Positions 2,492 through 31,688 of a DNA stretch of 64,000 nucleotides are shown in pieces. The DNA comes from Nitrospirales bacterium (GTDB taxonomy: Bacteria > Nitrospirota > Nitrospiria > Nitrospirales > UBA8639), in the NCBI GenBank assembly GCA_963555755.3, contig OY820905.2:2016001-2080000 (forward strand), written 5' to 3'. A program made the translations under genes and the position numbers. Each line of letters starts with the position of its first letter. Position 1 is the first letter of the stretch. Below the pieces are notes generated by a model. The model was given only the letters and a program-made list of their open reading frames with translations. It searched no databases and had not been told where the DNA came from.

Positions 2492-2887
2492 TTATTTCCG
2501 GGGAAGGTTCGTCAGAAACACCACAAGGTCTCGCACAGAAATCATGCCAACTAATTTTCCACCCTGGCCGGAAACCCCTAAATGCCGAACGTGCTCTTTT
2601 GCCATCACATCATTGGCATCGAGGAGCGTTTTATTTTCATCAATGGTCTTGATGGGGGCCGACATAATTTGCTCTACAGTGGTCTGGTTAGGATCCAACC
2701 CGGCGGCGACCAGACGTCTCAGCAAATCAGTATCAGTAAGAATCCCAATAATTTTCCCATCACGGGTGACAAAAATACTCCCAATCCCACTATCACGCAT
2801 GGTTTCCACAGCCTTGCGGACATTCACATCTCGATCAATTGTGATGAACTTCTCAGCCGGAACCATAAAAGATTTCACGGGAACCAT
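2492..2887 (-). CDS. CBS-pair domain protein
   Basis: Two CBS repeats (GILTDTD, VGMISVRD). Confidence 0.88.
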   Translation of the reverse strand: MVPVKSFMVPAEKFITIDRDVNVRKAVETMRDSGIGSIFVTRDGKIIGILTDTDLLRRLVAAGLDPNQTTVEQIMSAPIKTIDENKTLLDANDVMAKEHVRHLGVSGQGGKLVGMISVRDLVVFLTNLPRK

Positions 2888-2975
2888 AGATCTCTCCTTC
2901 GTTTAACCCATAAATGTTTTGCATCCTTCTTTGCCCAGAATGTGACTGCCTACTCCCCACGCGGAAAGCGTGCAA

Positions 2976-4532
2976 TCAAACCGTTGCCTGAACCGACTGT
3001 TGCCGATACGCCACCAGCGCCTCGACCAACGCAGGAATGGTATTTTGCCCGGCAACCACATCAACTTGCAATCCCTGCTCTCGAACGGTTTCGGCGGTAA
3101 TCGGCCCAATACACCCAATCATGGTGTGTTGGAGAATTTTTTTCAATTCCCCGCCTCCTCCAAACAATTCCACAAAATTTCGCACCGTGGATGAACTCGC
3201 AAACGTGACCATCTCGATTCCCTGGGAGAGAAACCGTGCTTTGATGTCATCGATTGCAGAATGAGGAACCACGGTTTGATACACCGGGACAACCTGAACC
3301 TCCGCTCCCACGCAGCGCAACTCTTCAGGCAGAATTTCACGAGCCTGTGCCGCACGAGCAATGAGCACACGTTGGCCAGCCACCCCAGCCTTTTTCATTT
3401 CATCCAGAACCCCCTCGGCTTGATATTGCGAAGGGATCAAGTCGGCTTTCACACCAAATTTTTCCAATTCTTGGGCAGTCCGAGGCCCAATACAACACAC
3501 TCGCACTCCCTGAAGACTTCGGGCATCTCGACCCTTGTACCACAAACGACGCATGAAATGTTGGACTCCATTCACACTCGTCAAGACCAGCCACTGATAG
3601 GTGTCCAGGCATGCAATGGCCTCATCGACATCTTCCCAACTTTCTGGGGGAACAAATTCGATTGTGGGACATTCCACCGGTTCCCCTCCATATGCCAGCA
3701 AGAGCTGAGAAAGCTCAGATGCTTGACTGCGAGCGCGAGTAACCAAAATCCGAGTTCCAAACAAGGGGCGGGATTCAAACCAATTCAGGTTTTTTCGCAA
3801 CGGAACCACGGCCCCAATGACAATAATAGTCGGCGGTTGAATATTCACGGCCTCAGCCCGCTCCACAATATCTGCCAATGTCCCGACCACTGTCCGTTGC
3901 TTGGGATAGGTTCCCCATTGAATAAGCGCCACCGGGGTGTCCGAGGATTTTCCTTCTTCGGTCAACCGGCGAACGATCGTGGGTAAATTCTTCGCCCCCA
4001 TGAGAAACACGAGAGTCCCATCGACAGTGGCTAACCGTGGCCACTCGAGAACACTTCCTCCCTTGCTGGGATCTTCATGACCCGTCACAAAGGTTACCGT
4101 CGAAGCCATGGTGCGATGCGTCACCGGAATCCCTGCATAGGCTGGCACGGCCACCGCTGAGGTAACCCCAGGAACCACTTCAAAGGGCACCGATTGCTCA
4201 GCCATCATCTCAGCTTCTTCCCCCCCTCGTCCGAATATAAATGGGTCTCCGCCCTTCAAGCGAACCACCTGTTTCCCTTCTTGGACTTTCTGAATCAACA
4301 GACGATGAATTTCCTCTTGAGGCCGATACGCCCCACGACCACAGCGTCCCACATAAATTCGCTCCGCATGAGCGGGGGCATAGTCTAAGAGCACAGGATT
4401 GGCTAAATGGTCATAGAGCACGACATCCGCCTGTTCCAGGCAGGTTTTCCCTCTGATAGTCAGTAATCCCGGATCACCAGGCCCTGCCCCAACTAAATAG
4501 ACTTTTCCTTTTTTCATGCCAATCCTGTTCAC
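2976..4532 (-). CDS. cobA/hemD: Fused uroporphyrinogen-III C-methyltransferase / uroporphyrinogen-III synthase
   Basis: N-terminal LVGAGPGDPGLLT and RLKGGDPFIFGRGGEE; C-terminal HemD (VLTSVNGV, CIGPRTA, FASSSTV). Confidence 0.95.
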   Translation of the reverse strand: MNRIGMKKGKVYLVGAGPGDPGLLTIRGKTCLEQADVVLYDHLANPVLLDYAPAHAERIYVGRCGRGAYRPQEEIHRLLIQKVQEGKQVVRLKGGDPFIFGRGGEEAEMMAEQSVPFEVVPGVTSAVAVPAYAGIPVTHRTMASTVTFVTGHEDPSKGGSVLEWPRLATVDGTLVFLMGAKNLPTIVRRLTEEGKSSDTPVALIQWGTYPKQRTVVGTLADIVERAEAVNIQPPTIIVIGAVVPLRKNLNWFESRPLFGTRILVTRARSQASELSQLLLAYGGEPVECPTIEFVPPESWEDVDEAIACLDTYQWLVLTSVNGVQHFMRRLWYKGRDARSLQGVRVCCIGPRTAQELEKFGVKADLIPSQYQAEGVLDEMKKAGVAGQRVLIARAAQAREILPEELRCVGAEVQVVPVYQTVVPHSAIDDIKARFLSQGIEMVTFASSSTVRNFVELFGGGGELKKILQHTMIGCIGPITAETVREQGLQVDVVAGQNTIPALVEALVAYRQQSVQATV

Positions 4533-16116: not shown

Positions 16117-16196
16117 CCTAGAAACAGCAGTTGGGCGCAAAAAAAGCCGCGTAAGAAATTGGTGTGCATTGTGAAAGAAAAAAGTCGTGGTCACCT
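16117..16196 (-). mobile_element. MITE family D end fragment
   Basis: CCTAGAAACAGCAGTTGGGCGCAAAAAA...GTCGTGGTCACC, the reverse complement of the D right end. Confidence 0.75.
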
Positions 16197-16197
16197 C

Positions 16198-16388
16198 AAT
16201 CTTATCTATGCTCTTAGAAATGCTGGTTTTGAAATCGTGCGGCAAAAGTGTGGTCATGTGAGTCTTCAAAACAGGGCAAACAACTCTGTCGTGCGGCTGC
16301 ACGATGAACTTGCTAAAGGAACGCTTTGGGTATCCTCAACCAATGGGGATTGAGCAAAGAAGATCTTATCGGATTTCTAAAAAAGTGA
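16198..16388 (+). pseudogene. hicA: HicA-type toxin remnant
   Basis: LIYALRNAGFEIVRQKCGHVSL...LHDELAKGTL, then a frameshift to GILNQWGLSKEDLIGFL; the 5' end is replaced by MITE D. Confidence 0.7.
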
Positions 16389-16414
16389 AGCTCCCTGCAC
16401 TTTGGGCGGAGGCT

Positions 16415-16849
16415 TCACTCGAATGGATTTTGGACATCCAGGAAGTCAAATTTTCTAAAGTCCCTATCGGTTGTATACAGCTTCCTCACATCGTGTTGCC
16501 GCAATAGGCTGACTAGATGCGCATCGGGCACCAAATTGCCCCGGACAGGAAAATTACCGGTGACCTCTCCATAGACATCCAGGAATCCGTCGGCCTCGGA
16601 CAAGGGTCGAACATGCGGAACTTGGAGGAGAGTCCGAATATTGGTTAACGCTTCCTGCGCAGATAAGGGATGGGTGAAGATTTTAGGATGAGTGGAAATA
16701 CGAAGGTAAGCCATCAGGGTTGGCCATGCCACATACCACATTTCAGTATGAATAGAACAGGTACGAAGAAATTCTATGGCGGATTCATGAAAAGGACTGG
16801 TGCGATCAGAGGCGTAGAGGAGGACATTGGCGTCAACGGCATAACTCAC
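16415..16849 (-). CDS. vapC: VapC PIN-domain toxin
   Basis: VDANVLLYA, GNLVPDAHL and TDRDF motifs. Confidence 0.9.
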   Translation of the reverse strand: MSYAVDANVLLYASDRTSPFHESAIEFLRTCSIHTEMWYVAWPTLMAYLRISTHPKIFTHPLSAQEALTNIRTLLQVPHVRPLSEADGFLDVYGEVTGNFPVRGNLVPDAHLVSLLRQHDVRKLYTTDRDFRKFDFLDVQNPFE

Positions 16850-17085
16850 TTTTTGCCCTGGTCGAGGACTGAGTAAACTGTCTCTTTGTCAGTTAGGTCA
16901 ATTGTCGCGTTCATGGCACGAGTGACCCATTGGAGTTTGGCCGGCTTGTGGGCTTTAGTTCTCCGGGATAAGGCTTCAGCCAACAATTGGGACATGATTT
17001 GCCCCAACGAGCGTTTCTCCTTTTTTTGGAGAGACTTGAGTTCCTTTAAAATTGGGGCATCGATATCAACGGTGGTTCTAGCCAT
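16846..17085 (-). CDS. vapB: VapB antitoxin (RHH)
   Basis: MARTTVDID RHH start; 4-nt overlap with vapC; TTGACA-N17-TATCAT promoter at 17095-17123. Confidence 0.85.
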   Translation of the reverse strand: MARTTVDIDAPILKELKSLQKKEKRSLGQIMSQLLAEALSRRTKAHKPAKLQWVTRAMNATIDLTDKETVYSVLDQGKK

Positions 17086-17309
17086 GATGCAATGATGATA
17101 GGTCTGGGAACATCTGATGTCAAGAAAAAGAGCACCAAAGCACAGACAACGATTTCGTGACACCGAAAAGTACGAGGACCTGCCCTAGAACGACCAGCGC
17201 CCCCGGCAATTAGCAGGGATCCAGGTTATGAAATAGAGCGAGAAACACGCGAGGTTCCCACCCGCACATCCAGAACAATCTCGCCATACCCTACGCCATC
17301 TCAGCTTCT

Positions 17310-17709
17310 TATTGGTGTGCATGGTGAAATATCGATGGTGATGAGACATTTTTGTATTTTGGCTGGTGCGCCAAGAAGCCTGTCCGAGATTAGGGATCGT
17401 CACGAGGATGTGCTGGTTTGAGTCAGATGTTTCGATCGTTTGAGGCGAATATTGGTGACTATTTAACGAAAACGGGGAATGTTCAAAAAGGCCGTCCAGC
17501 AAGGCCGCAGGGCTTTTGGCGCGCGGAGCGTACACGGAGTACGTGAGCACGCCAAAAGCCCGAGAACGCAGCTGGCGGCCTTTTTCAACATTCCCCGAAA
17601 AGGATCGGAAGATCTGGCCATACCCAGCGTACCCGCAGTAGATCCGTCTAATCTTGGACAGGCTCCTACAGCTTGCGCGGACCTTTGTGATCCAACTGCT
17701 GTTTCTAGG
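17310..17709 (-). mobile_element. Nested MITE: D (partial) containing E (17375-17666) containing B (17474-17596)
   Basis: Reverse-complement homology to 21162-22044; D end GTTTCTAGG followed by TTGAA. Confidence 0.8.
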
Positions 17710-27477: not shown

Positions 27478-27596
27478 TCTGTTCGGACGTAATGCGTGAA
27501 GCGTAGGGGAAAAAGAGCAACGGTATTTCTTCCACCTATAACGGATCACCCATCACGGATCACGAAACCGGCCAATAATTTTCTGCGCCACCAATC

Positions 27597-28439
27597 ATGA
27601 ACACCCTCACAGCCTATAATGGCATTCACATCCCGGTCTTCATGTATGGCACCGCCTGGAAGAAAGAGGCGACAGACGATCTCGTTCAATTGGCTGTCTC
27701 TTCCGGGTTTACCGCTATCGACACAGCCAATCAACTCATCCATTACAATGAGGCCCTCGTGGGAGAGGCCTTACTCACCCTTGCCAGCCAAGGCACCACG
27801 CGAGAATCCTTATTTCTCCAAACCAAATTCACGTCGGTTTCCGGGCAAGACCATCGCACACCTTACGATCCGATTGCCCCAATTTCCAAACAAGTCGAAC
27901 AATCGTTTGAAAATTCGCTGCAACATCTGCATACCGATTACCTAGACTCCTACGTCTTGCACGGGCCATATTCGCGACATGGTTTAGGAAAGGAAGACCG
28001 GGAAGTCTGGACAGCCTTTGAAGGAATCTATCAGTCAGGCCAGACCAAAATGATTGGCATCAGCAATGTCACGGCAAGCCAACTCCGCCAGCTTTGTGAG
28101 GAAGCCACGGTGAAACCCATGGTCGTCCAGAACCGCTGTTATGCCAGTCATGGGTGGGATCATGAAGTGCGAGAACTCTGCACCGCGCACGACATTATCT
28201 ATCAAGGGTTTTCGCTCTTAACCGCCAACCAAAATGTATTGAGAGACCCGGAAATTGGAAGGATCGCTCATCGTGTGGGGTCAGGGCAGATGCAGGTCAT
28301 CTTTCGGTTTGCCCAGCAAATCGGCATGCTCCCCTTAACCGGCACGACCAACGCACAACATATGAAAGACGATTTACAAATTGAGAACTTCCAACTCACC
28401 TCGGAAGAAATCACGCAGATTGAAAGAATTGGACTATGA
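27597..28439 (+). CDS. Aldo/keto reductase
   Basis: YGTA, IDTA..Y, LQTKF, YLDSYVLH and IGISN motifs. Confidence 0.9.
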   Translation: MNTLTAYNGIHIPVFMYGTAWKKEATDDLVQLAVSSGFTAIDTANQLIHYNEALVGEALLTLASQGTTRESLFLQTKFTSVSGQDHRTPYDPIAPISKQVEQSFENSLQHLHTDYLDSYVLHGPYSRHGLGKEDREVWTAFEGIYQSGQTKMIGISNVTASQLRQLCEEATVKPMVVQNRCYASHGWDHEVRELCTAHDIIYQGFSLLTANQNVLRDPEIGRIAHRVGSGQMQVIFRFAQQIGMLPLTGTTNAQHMKDDLQIENFQLTSEEITQIERIGL

Positions 28440-28979
28440 TGGCGCTGATTCCGTTTGATTGTCCTCTTGATTCTTTGAGCCGCTGACTTCGGAGGTCAAT
28501 GTATCAGATGTCTCCGCCGTTGCCCGGGATAGATCCTTACTCTCAGCCACTGGGCCAAAAGTCTTTTTGGACTTAACCTGGCCTGCTTTACCCTGGCCTA
28601 TTGAGGAGCCCATGGTGATTTTTCCATTAAAAATCACGCCATTGTCCATAGACAGTTTGGGAGTTGTAATCGACGCATCAATGGTCGCCGGCGATTTAAG
28701 CTCGACCCGTTGGACGGCGGTGATTTCTCCCGTGATTCGCCCACTGGCGATCACCGCCCCAGCATGAATCTGAGCTTTCACGTTAGCTTGCTCGCCGATG
28801 AATAAGGTGTCTTCGGTTTCAATTTCGCCTTCGAAAGTTCCATCGATTCGAACATTCCCTTTGTAGGTCAGCACCCCGGAAAATTGTACTTCGTGCCCCA
28901 CAAACGCCACGATGTCTCCCAACTCTGATAACGTTCTCTCCATTGTCCGATTTGAGAATTCGTCTTTTTCCTGGGCCAT
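28434..28979 (-). CDS. Bactofilin (polymer-forming cytoskeletal protein)
   Basis: VRIDGTFEGEI...GRITGEI...GVIFNGKI beta-helix repeats. Confidence 0.88.
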   Translation of the reverse strand: MAQEKDEFSNRTMERTLSELGDIVAFVGHEVQFSGVLTYKGNVRIDGTFEGEIETEDTLFIGEQANVKAQIHAGAVIASGRITGEITAVQRVELKSPATIDASITTPKLSMDNGVIFNGKITMGSSIGQGKAGQVKSKKTFGPVAESKDLSRATAETSDTLTSEVSGSKNQEDNQTESAPS

Positions 28980-29236
28980 AGTTTCACTCCTTCATCACCA
29001 AAGACAAACTTACAAGGCCAATGCCAAGACACCCTACAAGAAATATGGCCTCGCTTCAATGCACAGATACAATTTTCCATGCCTCCCTTTTCATATTGTC
29101 TCTTTTTCAGGTATTTTCTCTTGGTTCACCGATTTAACCTAGACATTATGTATTGACCTGCCCAATCTTCAGGCACGTGGGGTAAGCTACGGGGGAATCA
29201 CCCGGAGTTTACAACCACCATGAAGGAGGACAGGGC

Positions 29237-30361
29237 ATGAACCAGTTTCACAAGTTTGTTGGGTTGGACACACACAAGGACACGATTGCGGTGGCGGTGA
29301 GTGAGGCGAATGGGGGGCCCACCCGGTACTATGGTGAAATTTCAAACACGCCCAAGGCGCTGGCCAAGTTGGTCAAGACCCTGACCGCCCAAGGGGACGC
29401 GGTGTCATTTTGTTATGAGGCCGGCCCGTGTGGCTATGGGATCTATCGACAACTCACGGCGTTGGGCCAGGCTTGCGCGGTGGTGGCGCCGTCCCTGATC
29501 CCCACGAAACCGGGCGACCGAGTGAAGACGGATCGGCGCGACAGTGAATCGCTGTCCCGGTTGCATCGGGCAGGCGAGCTCACAGCCGTCTGGGTGCCGG
29601 ATCAGGAGCAGGAAGCGATGCGGGATCTCACGCGAGCGCGGGAAGATATGAAAGGGCTGGAACGGATCACCAAACAACGGCTCAATGCGTTTCTGCTTCG
29701 GCATGGCCGCAACTATGATCGGGGAAAATGTCGTTGGACCCAGGCGCATAGCCGCTGGTTGGCAGGCCTGAAGTTTGAGAACACGGTGCAACAGATTGTC
29801 TTTCAAGAATATATAGAGGCGGTGAAGCAGGCCGCAGGCCGCGTGTCCGGGTTGGAACACGAGATGGCGCAAGCGCTAAAGACCTGGGAGCTGGCCCCAA
29901 TGGTCGAGGCCCTGATGGCCCTGCGCGGGGTGAAGCTGATCACCGCCATGACCGTGCTGGCAGAACTGGGGGACCTCAGTCGTTTTACCTCCCCGTCGCA
30001 ACTGATGGCCTATCTGGGGCTGGTGCCTCGTGAACACTCCAGTGGCCAGACCCGGCGGCGCGGCGGGATCACCAAGACGGGTAACGGCCATGTGCGGCGG
30101 GTGCTGGTCGAAGCCGCCTGGGGATACCGGTTCCCGGCTCGTAAGACTGCGCATCTGCAACGGCGGGCCACACAGACGTCCGCAGCCGTGCAGGCCATCG
30201 CCTGGAAAGCCCAGAAGCGATTGTGCGGGCGCTATCGGCATCTGCTGGCGGCCGGGAAACTCACGGTGCAGGCTTGTACGGCTGTGGCCCGGGAGTTGGC
30301 GGGGTTTATCTGGGCGATTGCGTGTGAAGTCCTGAACCAACCGGCTGTGAACACTCGGTAA
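29237..30361 (+). CDS. IS110 family DEDD transposase/recombinase
   Basis: GLDTHK, YEAG and KTDRRD (DEDD), plus C-terminal GLVP..HSSG. Confidence 0.96.
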   Translation: MNQFHKFVGLDTHKDTIAVAVSEANGGPTRYYGEISNTPKALAKLVKTLTAQGDAVSFCYEAGPCGYGIYRQLTALGQACAVVAPSLIPTKPGDRVKTDRRDSESLSRLHRAGELTAVWVPDQEQEAMRDLTRAREDMKGLERITKQRLNAFLLRHGRNYDRGKCRWTQAHSRWLAGLKFENTVQQIVFQEYIEAVKQAAGRVSGLEHEMAQALKTWELAPMVEALMALRGVKLITAMTVLAELGDLSRFTSPSQLMAYLGLVPREHSSGQTRRRGGITKTGNGHVRRVLVEAAWGYRFPARKTAHLQRRATQTSAAVQAIAWKAQKRLCGRYRHLLAAGKLTVQACTAVARELAGFIWAIACEVLNQPAVNTR

Positions 30362-30406
30362 GACCTGAGCGAACTGACTGGTTAGCACCACCATGCACAC
30401 AAGGAA

Positions 30407-30618
30407 TATCCAGCCAGTCTTTGGGCCAGGGCAGGGGCGGCCGGTGGGAGAATCCTCGGCGTTTCTATGAGGCGCTCAACAGAACTGAGACGACCCTCGA
30501 TCCTAGAGAGAGGCAGCTCCACGACGAAGAGAGGTCAGGCGGTGTCGACCCGCGTATATCAGAGTGATCCACCGTCGTTGATTGCCACCCCTGCCCTGTG
30601 CCAAGGACTGGCTGGATA
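30407..30618 (+). ncRNA. Putative bridge/seek RNA of the IS1111-type element
   Basis: Long closing stem (30407-30441 with 30584-30618) enclosing segments that match the target and donor junctions. Confidence 0.75.
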
Positions 30619-30680
30619 AAGCCAGAACGGATGCGACATTGAACACTTGATTACCAATAGTTGACAGGTCAATACATATC

Positions 30681-30755
30681 AGAAACGGCAGTTGGGCGCA
30701 AAAAGGCGTGTAAGATATTGGTGTGCATGGTGAAATACAAAAAGTCGTGGTCACC
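30681..30755 (-). mobile_element. Remainder of the MITE D end split by the IS
   Basis: AGAAACGGCAGTTGGGCGCAAAAAGG...GTCGTGGTCACC, matching 16117-16196 and the reverse complement of the D ends. Confidence 0.8.
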
Positions 30756-30836
30756 ATAGGGGTCGGGCAAAATAGTGACCCAGTTGCCCCCCAGCTTAAC
30801 CATAACGTTGATGTCGCCTACATGTTTGAGTCAATC

Positions 30837-31688
30837 ATGAAATTAAAACATGGGAGCTCTCTTGTCCTCATCCTCACGTTGATCATGCCGTGCTTCCCAG
30901 TATTCGGCAAGGACAAGCCTGATATCATGCTGGCTAAAATTTACGAACGCGGCATCGATGTCACCCAGTATTGGGTGAGTGAAAAACTCGATGGAGTCCG
31001 GGCTCGATGGGACGGCACCCAGCTCATCTCCCGAGGGGGCCACACCTTCGCTGCGCCGGAATGGTTCACCCACGGTTTTCCGTCCATACCCTTGGACGGA
31101 GAATTATGGACCGAGAGAAGTCAGTATGAAAACCTGTCTTCGATTGTCAGAAAGCAACAACCCCATAAGGGATGGCGGTCCGTCCGCTTGATGGTATTTG
31201 ATCTTCCCGCTCATGGCGGTAGTTTTGACGAACGAGTCCAGGCCATGAAGCAGATCGTGCTCCAGACCAAATCACCCTACCTGGGGGTCATTGAACAATG
31301 GCGGGTCGGGAACGAAAACGAATTGAAGCAGCGATTGCAATCCGTGATCGATCGAGGCGGCGAGGGGTTGATGCTGCACCGCAACACGGCACGGTACGCG
31401 AGCGGTCGCAGTCACGATTTACTCAAACTCAAACCCTTTTCCGACGCCGAAGCCACGGTGATCGGCTATCGGCCAGGAAAGGGTAAATATCTCGGGCACG
31501 TCGGGTCGCTTAAAGTACAGACGGACGACGGGAGACAATTCTTTATCGGAACCGGACTCAGCGATGAAGAACGACGCCAACCCCCACCTCTGAATAGCAG
31601 AATAACCTTTCGTTTCCAAGGCCGGACAAAAAACGGCATCCCTCGCTTTCCGGTGTTTTTGCGCATCCGCGATGAAGAACCACAATAG
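30837..31688 (+). CDS. Minimal ATP-dependent DNA ligase with signal peptide (LigE-like)
   Basis: SEKLDGVRA (KxDG), LDGELW, EGLM, LLKLK and PRFP motifs; hydrophobic N-terminal signal-like segment. Confidence 0.9.
   Translation: MKLKHGSSLVLILTLIMPCFPVFGKDKPDIMLAKIYERGIDVTQYWVSEKLDGVRARWDGTQLISRGGHTFAAPEWFTHGFPSIPLDGELWTERSQYENLSSIVRKQQPHKGWRSVRLMVFDLPAHGGSFDERVQAMKQIVLQTKSPYLGVIEQWRVGNENELKQRLQSVIDRGGEGLMLHRNTARYASGRSHDLLKLKPFSDAEATVIGYRPGKGKYLGHVGSLKVQTDDGRQFFIGTGLSDEERRQPPPLNSRITFRFQGRTKNGIPRFPVFLRIRDEEPQ

Follow-up and report, generated by a model that had tools for sequence, protein, structure and literature searches.

The element and its insertion site

The DNA analysed here, referred to as the window, is a 64,000-nt stretch from a Nitrospirales bacterium (assembly GCA_963555755.3, contig OY820905.2, positions 2,016,001-2,080,000 of the forward strand), and all coordinates are positions in this window unless another contig is named. 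The genome is designated G000, other genomes carry G-labels and homologue loci carry L-labels. The locus consists of an insertion sequence (IS) that interrupts the end of a MITE, with the following features:

29133-29137, + strand: TTTAA, the 5-bp TTNAA-type target duplication of the host MITE
29138-29140, + strand: CCT, outer tip of the MITE terminal repeat, split off by the IS
29141-30680, + strand: IS element of 1,540 bp, delimited by the 7+3 rule for IS1111-type ends (PMC11187229, consulted in part)
29141-29142, + strand: left copy of the AG core, conserved at homologue junctions
29148-29160, + strand: left subterminal inverted repeat, 13 bp
29237-30361, + strand: 374-aa DEDD recombinase/transposase, from PF01548, PF02371, NF033542 and catalytic motifs
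30665-30677, + strand: right subterminal inverted repeat, 13 bp
30681-30755, + strand: right copy of the AG core, followed by the remainder of the MITE "A" end, with the MITE sequence cut short after about 30755

The recombinase matched PF01548 (3e-16) and PF02371 (3.8e-23), representing RuvC-like DEDD and Transposase_20 domains, and scored 273 bits against NF033542, the NCBIfam model for IS110 RNA-guided transposases (cut-off 140). Alignment with the motifs of ISCro4 placed the catalytic residues at D11, E61, D99 and D102 and an SG serine motif at residues 269-270. The subterminal inverted repeats are perfect over 13 bp, with 7 bp outside the left repeat (AGACATT) and 3 bp outside the right repeat (ATC), and the non-coding region 3′ of the gene spans 319 bp, compared with 96 bp on the 5′ side. 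IS1111-type ends, in the part of the published description consulted, carry 11-13-bp subterminal repeats with 7-bp and 3-bp extensions (PMC11187229). Judged by its domains and DNA layout the element is thus a member of the IS110 family with an IS1111-type organization; a preliminary description of this DNA had also assigned it to the IS1111 type, and the subterminal repeats, the 7+3 extensions and the long 3′ non-coding region bear this out. Both junctions read as that description gave them. The element itself ends at 29141 and 30680, rather than extending over 29139-30755 as proposed there, and the sequence beyond it is a remnant of the host repeat.

Elsewhere in the genome, a lone 39-bp remnant resembling the right end of this IS family lies at G000:C1:2801318-2801355; it has a different flank, and no transposase beside it was found in the search.

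A conserved two-loop RNA is predicted downstream of the recombinase gene

The 3′ non-coding region contains the following predicted elements:

30407-30618, + strand: predicted bridge/seek RNA, closed by a 35-bp stem (30407-30441 with 30584-30618)
30459-30467, + strand: target guide 1, forming the 5′ strand of the target loop and covarying with the site; corresponds to the reverse complement of core and right flank
30502-30506, + strand: target guide 2, forming the 3′ strand of the target loop; corresponds to left flank and core
30530-30536, + strand: likely 5′-strand guide of the donor loop; contains an invariant GTC, a tentative assignment
30538-30553, + strand: hairpin in the donor loop, containing GGTGTC
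30556-30562, + strand: conserved 3′-strand donor guide, ATATCAG, matching right IS end and core

The closing stem and three guide-like segments, CGTTTCTA (30460-30467), CCTAGA (30502-30507) and ATATCAGA (30556-30563), had been named in the preliminary description, and all are present where it placed them. The two arms of the stem are 89% complementary, with a fold z of -5.5. Folding the single sequence did not display the two loops correctly; they were displayed by a consensus fold built from an alignment of 37 distinct 3′ regions, which contains two internal loops, each lying between a closing stem and a capping hairpin, with guides 1 and 2 forming the two strands of the first loop. In this consensus 95.8% of cells are paired, a figure scored on the same alignment from which the structure was derived, and 106 cells changed on both sides, compared with 32.5 after shuffling and at most 24 with slid partners. 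A search of Rfam returned no match to the predicted RNA at E-values up to 1.

Guide 1 of this IS matches five of the six flank bases. The top-strand match (30459-30467) precedes the bottom-strand match (30502-30506), which is the IS1111 order.

In the donor loop, the preliminary description had considered GGTGTC at 30541 as a possible guide. This motif straddles the stem and the loop of a conserved hairpin and varies regardless of the donor, rather than being conserved as a donor match, and is therefore not regarded as a guide. The likelier guide on the 5′ strand may instead end at 30534-30536, where GTC is invariant in 37/37 aligned rows and can pair with the left IS end; these three bases, usually followed by an A, are the only part of 30530-30536 that matches the left end here. 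Covariation of the handshake bases, looked for by eye in both homologue sets, was not convincing outside one clade.

These features raise the question of how much of the RNA acts as a guide. In ISEc11 an 82-nt RNA sufficed, according to the part of the report consulted (PMC11187229), and it is conceivable that here, too, a short seekRNA guides through the target loop only (about 30447-30520), with the protein recognising the IS ends at their subterminal repeats and the donor loop having a secondary role. The three-base match of the 5′ donor guide fits such an arrangement, and donor ends hardly vary, which leaves almost no room for a covariation signal there. Against it, the two loops are equally conserved in the 37-row alignment, and the 3′ donor guide ATATCAG matches the right IS end at 7/7 positions and changes together with that end in one locus (L107); this donor match is in turn countered by six genome-set rows and several metagenome rows that read ATCTCAG next to an unchanged or missing end. 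On balance we consider guidance by the target loop only to be unlikely, and favour an RNA in which both loops pair with DNA.

Guides and targets change together among homologues

Homologue loci were taken from named genomes (79 loci) and metagenomes (80 loci), together with loci from relatives. Conservation of IS ends and 3′ regions extends to homologues with about 55% protein identity, and the junctions read NNAG-ACA on the left, nearly always with TAG, and ATC-AG-N on the right. The final base of the right junction was A in only 5/57 cases, four of which were this IS or a 91% relative, indicating that the core is AG and not the AGA of the preliminary description.

For the genome set, 70/87 loci could be parsed (17/87 could not), and 57 had an AG right flank; the 13 dropped had no flank or a short one, AA at the core, or a tandem arrangement. 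Across 40 distinct pairs, 190/240 bases of guide 1 (the six bases before CT) matched the flank, with agreement at positions +1 to +6 of the right flank in 37, 38, 39, 34, 25 and 17 of the 40. The mean over 26 guides was 4.81/6, compared with 2.03 after permutation, a value reached in 0/20,000 permutations. Guide 2 agreed with the left flank at positions -1 to -5 in 43, 39, 20, 15 and 9 of 44 cases. The metagenome set (54/80 loci parsed, 26/80 unparsed, 40 with a right flank, giving 36 distinct pairs and 21 guides) behaved likewise, with a mean for guide 1 of 4.34/6 versus 1.72 permuted (0/10,000) and matches of guide 2 at successive positions from -1 in 36, 34 and 18 of 38; both permutation tests ignore kinship, and the two sets overlap slightly (L191 repeats L036). 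On a quick tree of 76 proteins, guide and target change jointly on many branches. Misfits occur in L173 (1/6), L221 (2/6), and L039 and L095 (3/6 each), and L054 and L055 read AA at the core.

The agreement shows that about four bases to the right and two bases to the left of the AG core carry most of the predicted specificity. Covariation of guides with targets among homologues, which the preliminary description had anticipated, is thus evident for the right-flank guide in both sets, and its proposal of a 3′ guide RNA whose guides match the MITE end is supported by this covariation together with the two-loop fold. Site choice by the protein or by the MITE hairpin, with incidental RNA matches, is very improbable: the 163-bp MITE does fold into one long hairpin, but elements whose proteins are nearly identical occupy different sites when their loop letters differ, and the letters follow the site.

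Three copies occupy one position in an abundant MITE

The MITE terminal repeat has 347 matches in the genome within three mismatches, comprising 154 ends of inner type A, 141 of type B and 52 others. These ends form 144 facing pairs, 88 of which have a perfect 5-bp duplication, of the form TTNAA in 78/88, and the commonest unit is 163 bp long (49 are exactly 163 bp), larger units carrying inserts. On the evidence of its inverted repeats, its duplication, its copies and the lack of a transposase of its own, the family is a MITE with about 140 copies. The window holds seven matches to the repeat end (0.02 expected), including the six other ends listed in the preliminary description, all found where it placed them.

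Size classes of 328, 429, 488, 589 and 772 bp recur among the MITEs. The interiors of some hold other elements (G000:C1:3598950-3601057, 27566-29258 and 3591525-3593120), which from their motifs we take to be a 407-aa IS110-like ORF, an IS91-like fragment and an IS1595-like ORF. At 16117-17709 of the window, two MITE ends lie 1.6 kb apart with an unmatched duplication (TTCAT/TTGAA) and enclose a 108-aa ORF, presumably a PIN/VapC-like protein by its motif.

The chromosome contains 158 exact copies of the 10-bp site CCTAGAAACG, of which 154 are in MITE-type ends (about 9 expected from composition), so that the predicted guide alone explains the specificity of insertion. Only 5/88 reconstructed MITE sites fall within a 600-bp open frame, compared with 365/1000 random positions. 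Landing sites are therefore plentiful and mostly intergenic, in line with the preliminary description.

The genome contains three copies of the IS, 100% identical over 1,545 bp. All three are located at one base inside a MITE A end with identical flanks (3/3), and none is at an unrelated site, which agrees with the fixed flanks expected from the preliminary description; site, orientation and dinucleotide core are the same in 3/3 copies, and there is no true duplication. The host MITE bodies measure 163 bp and 429 bp in two cases and are truncated in the third, and these three different bodies point to three separate insertions. The host in the window is the truncated one in the sense that it is a remnant of one end, with similarity to the family stopping near 30755 and no partner end found within 4 kb. 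It is scarcely credible that one insertion was followed by copying of a MITE-plus-IS unit by an IS1380-like transposase, which would suit the identity of the three copies and the intact far end and perfect TTCAA duplication of two of them, given that neither length nor junction-adjacent sequence is shared by the three host MITEs, that no intact cognate transposase was found in G000 and that independent junctions exist in G006 and in metagenomes.

An ORF for an ATP-dependent DNA ligase lies at 30723-31688. Its GTG at 30723 lies inside the MITE remnant, and an ATG at 30838 would give a hydrophobic, signal-peptide-like N-terminus, resembling that of periplasmic Lig E ligases.

Three exact sites are filled by the IS and 158 are empty, about 2%, so these counts give no support to a brake on the MITE or to the effect on the MITE family implied in the preliminary description. 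The location of 3/3 copies in A ends is not a significant preference over B ends, given that 92 A and 33 B ends have the same 12-mer. Moreover, the element at L172 sits in a B-type end despite a guide mismatch, which argues against B ends escaping by that change.

The MITE resembles an IS1380-like element

In another genome (G143), a 1.64-kb element that carries a DDE_Tnp_1_4 transposase has a left end sharing 17/18 bases with the MITE end. The transposase scores above the cut-off for PF13701 and reaches 130 bits against NF033539, below the NCBIfam IS1380 cut-off of 180, so the element is termed IS1380-like; 2/2 copies have 5-bp duplications. The single base that differs between the two ends removes the AG core, and CCTAT, CCTAA or CCTAC, which likewise lack it, stand at the ends of the autonomous IS1380-like element (L164, G143:C2) and at many related ends elsewhere, so that none of these would be targets of the IS. 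In G000 itself no intact cognate IS1380-like transposase was found, and the relic of this transposase type there covers only 72 aa, beside a MITE-like end. A resident IS1380-type element (G000:C1:706533 and seven more, eight full-length matches) was rejected as the parent of the MITE, having a different terminal repeat of its own.

Targeting habit of the lineage

Every element that has this guide and a readable right flank occupies this MITE end (7/7: three in G000, and L034, L172, L176 and L179), and three further single junctions in G006 agree with it. L171, whose guide reads AGGTTT, nests among elements with other targets yet occupies the same MITE end, and on the quick tree it is probably a second arrival there. 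Where the guide is different, relatives occupy other multicopy ends, with 252, 29 and 39 copies of the target pattern in G338, G340 and G343. Over the nine genomes of such relatives, the pattern occurs 252, 29, 39 and 11 times in four and 0-4 times in five, including three with 0 or 1 (G341, G344 and G346). A further group of relatives is inserted after GTAG, in sequences that we take to be REPs from their appearance. Judged by their guides and sites, the relatives are directed to the ends of other MITEs, to IS ends and to REP-like repeats, and the lineage has, on this comparison, been reprogrammed often, among repeats with NTAG at the tip.

Three homologue loci have unusual structures. L034 is a 1.8-kb contig binned as an alphaproteobacterium whose element is 91% identical and occupies the same MITE end, reflecting either mis-binning or transfer. 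L073 contains, at 2586-3925, four tandem copies of a 335-bp unit (transposase gene tail, whole predicted RNA and right end) joined at AG inside the gene, which may be a guide-cassette amplification made by the recombinase or an assembly artefact. L057 has a single partial transposase between inverted copies of the right end and RNA region, as in a rearranged or head-to-head element.

One could view the lineage as a standing predator of non-autonomous elements, with a guide that is repeatedly rewritten to track whichever NTAG-tipped MITE is abundant and that reached this MITE end twice independently (GCGTTT and AGGTTT, on separate branches). It would disable MITE copies by splitting their ends and spare the autonomous IS1380-like parent, whose ends have no AG core, and guide and MITE tip would co-evolve. 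We regard this broader scenario as decidedly doubtful.

A putative promoter would form when the IS ends are joined

One further element lies near the right end:

30661-30666, + strand: TTGACA -35 box, which end joining would place 17 bp from a -10-like hexamer in the left end

Joining of the IS ends would place TTGACA 17 bp before CATTAT. The -35 box is kept in 44/51 homologues, with a correctly spaced -10 in 38, and a promoter scan of the inserted form of the IS found none. Neither a circle joint nor a re-joined empty site was present in assembled contigs of four sequencing runs, a form of data that drops rare forms. In one study, two RNA libraries gave contigs over 29859-30637 and 30275-30649, with little or no cover over the 5′ half of the recombinase gene; being assembled contigs, these cannot show transcription.

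Discussion

The locus combines the anatomy of an IS110-family element of IS1111-type layout with three copies in as many MITE bodies, a two-loop fold that is conserved, and target strands that covary with the insertion site. We place at roughly 0.9 the probability that the three copies came to lie at one base inside the MITE terminal repeat by RNA-guided recombination, in which the predicted two-loop 3′ RNA would pair both with the MITE end and with the joined ends of the IS itself. By analogy with IS621 and ISEc11, the IS would excise as a circle, the junction promoter would drive the recombinase and the RNA, and strands would be exchanged at the AG core, the target loop opening about 10 bp of the MITE tip. 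Insertion separates the outermost 3-5 bp of the MITE end from the remainder by 1.5 kb and would be expected to spoil that end.

A comparable habit is said to have been described by Partridge and Hall in 2003 for IS4321/IS5075, IS1111-type elements whose reported target is the terminal inverted repeat of the Tn21 family. The ends recognised differ, being those of Tn21-family elements in one case and of an IS1380-like MITE in the other, and the IS4321/IS5075 protein shares only 25% identity with our recombinase over residues 7-294. Among named elements, the closest relationships are instead to transposases of the ISSfr2 (57%), ISEc45 (51%) and ISSso6 (48%) families. By protein sequence the recombinase therefore falls on a separate branch and is not filed as a core IS1111 member.

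Within this branch, our IS shares its RNA scaffold and AG junctions with the ISSfr2-family locus L167, whereas the ISCARN28/ISSfr2/ISEc45/ISSso6 group differs from our IS in guide letters, target and subterminal repeat. In the parts of two published studies consulted, ISCARN28 is among six predicted bridge RNAs annotated with LTG, RTG, LDG and RDG (Durrant 2024, Fig. 6d, PMC11208160), and ISSfr2 is labelled IS1111, with ISCARN28 listed beside its neighbours (Siddiquee 2024, source data). In the ISSfr2 row of these source data, ten neighbours stand at 45-60% and the remaining columns shown at 26.4% or less, and the domain rows of the ISCARN28 cluster, compared by eye over one domain row of the portion consulted, match our recombinase at 56/74 positions of the C-terminal domain.

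Published seekRNA and bridge RNA systems share some of these features, as far as the consulted parts of their reports describe them. ISEc11, ISKpn4 and ISPa11 have in common with this IS a 3′ non-coding region, 11-13-bp subterminal repeats with 7+3 extensions, a top-strand match that comes first, a junction promoter (a predicted one here) and natural reprogramming; their transposases are 330-350 aa long, compared with 374 aa here, and their targets are a linear site, attC and REP, unlike the MITE end (PMC11187229). ISPpu9 shares the AG core and also targets a repeat (REP), and its modular circles include an RNA-only module that resembles the tandem RNA cassette of L073, but it belongs to the IS110 group without subterminal repeats and, in the part consulted, has no hybrid promoter (PMC12288879). 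IS621 shares the two internal loops, the dinucleotide core, the DEDD plus serine residues and a repeat as target (PMC11208160, PMC11208158, PMC13626964, each in part); as described there its RNA lies 5′ of the gene and not 3′. The IS621 protein is only weakly similar to ours (E 5e-7), and we count the short subterminal repeats as a further difference.

IS621 has a CT core and a left donor guide that stops one base short and is followed by A, in the portion of the structural report consulted (PMC11208158). Its core and guide lengths agree with those of our IS when the latter is read on the opposite strand. In that orientation our IS would mirror IS621, with a CT core, the long guide first and the short guide second, and a donor guide whose final C precedes an unpaired A; such an inverted geometry agrees with the reversed guide order reported for IS1111 types.

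The literature searched, in which most subscription journals were outside coverage, yielded no report of an IS110 element that targets a MITE end. Both the mechanism and the targeting of other mobile elements' ends by IS110/IS1111-type elements are already known: according to the parts of the sources consulted, ISEc21 targets IS3-family genes (PMC11187229), and REPs are targeted by IS621 (PMC11208160), ISPa11 (PMC11187229) and ISPpu9 (PMC12288879). The IS described here adds a clear natural example and leaves this knowledge of mechanism and targeting unchanged. In the little-studied ISCARN28/ISSfr2 branch both target guides can now be located from dozens of natural guide-target pairs, and the IS could be used as a starting scaffold for testing a new programmable recombinase. 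Finally, the comparison suggests that the "reversed guide order" of IS1111-type elements may be the IS621 geometry on the other strand.
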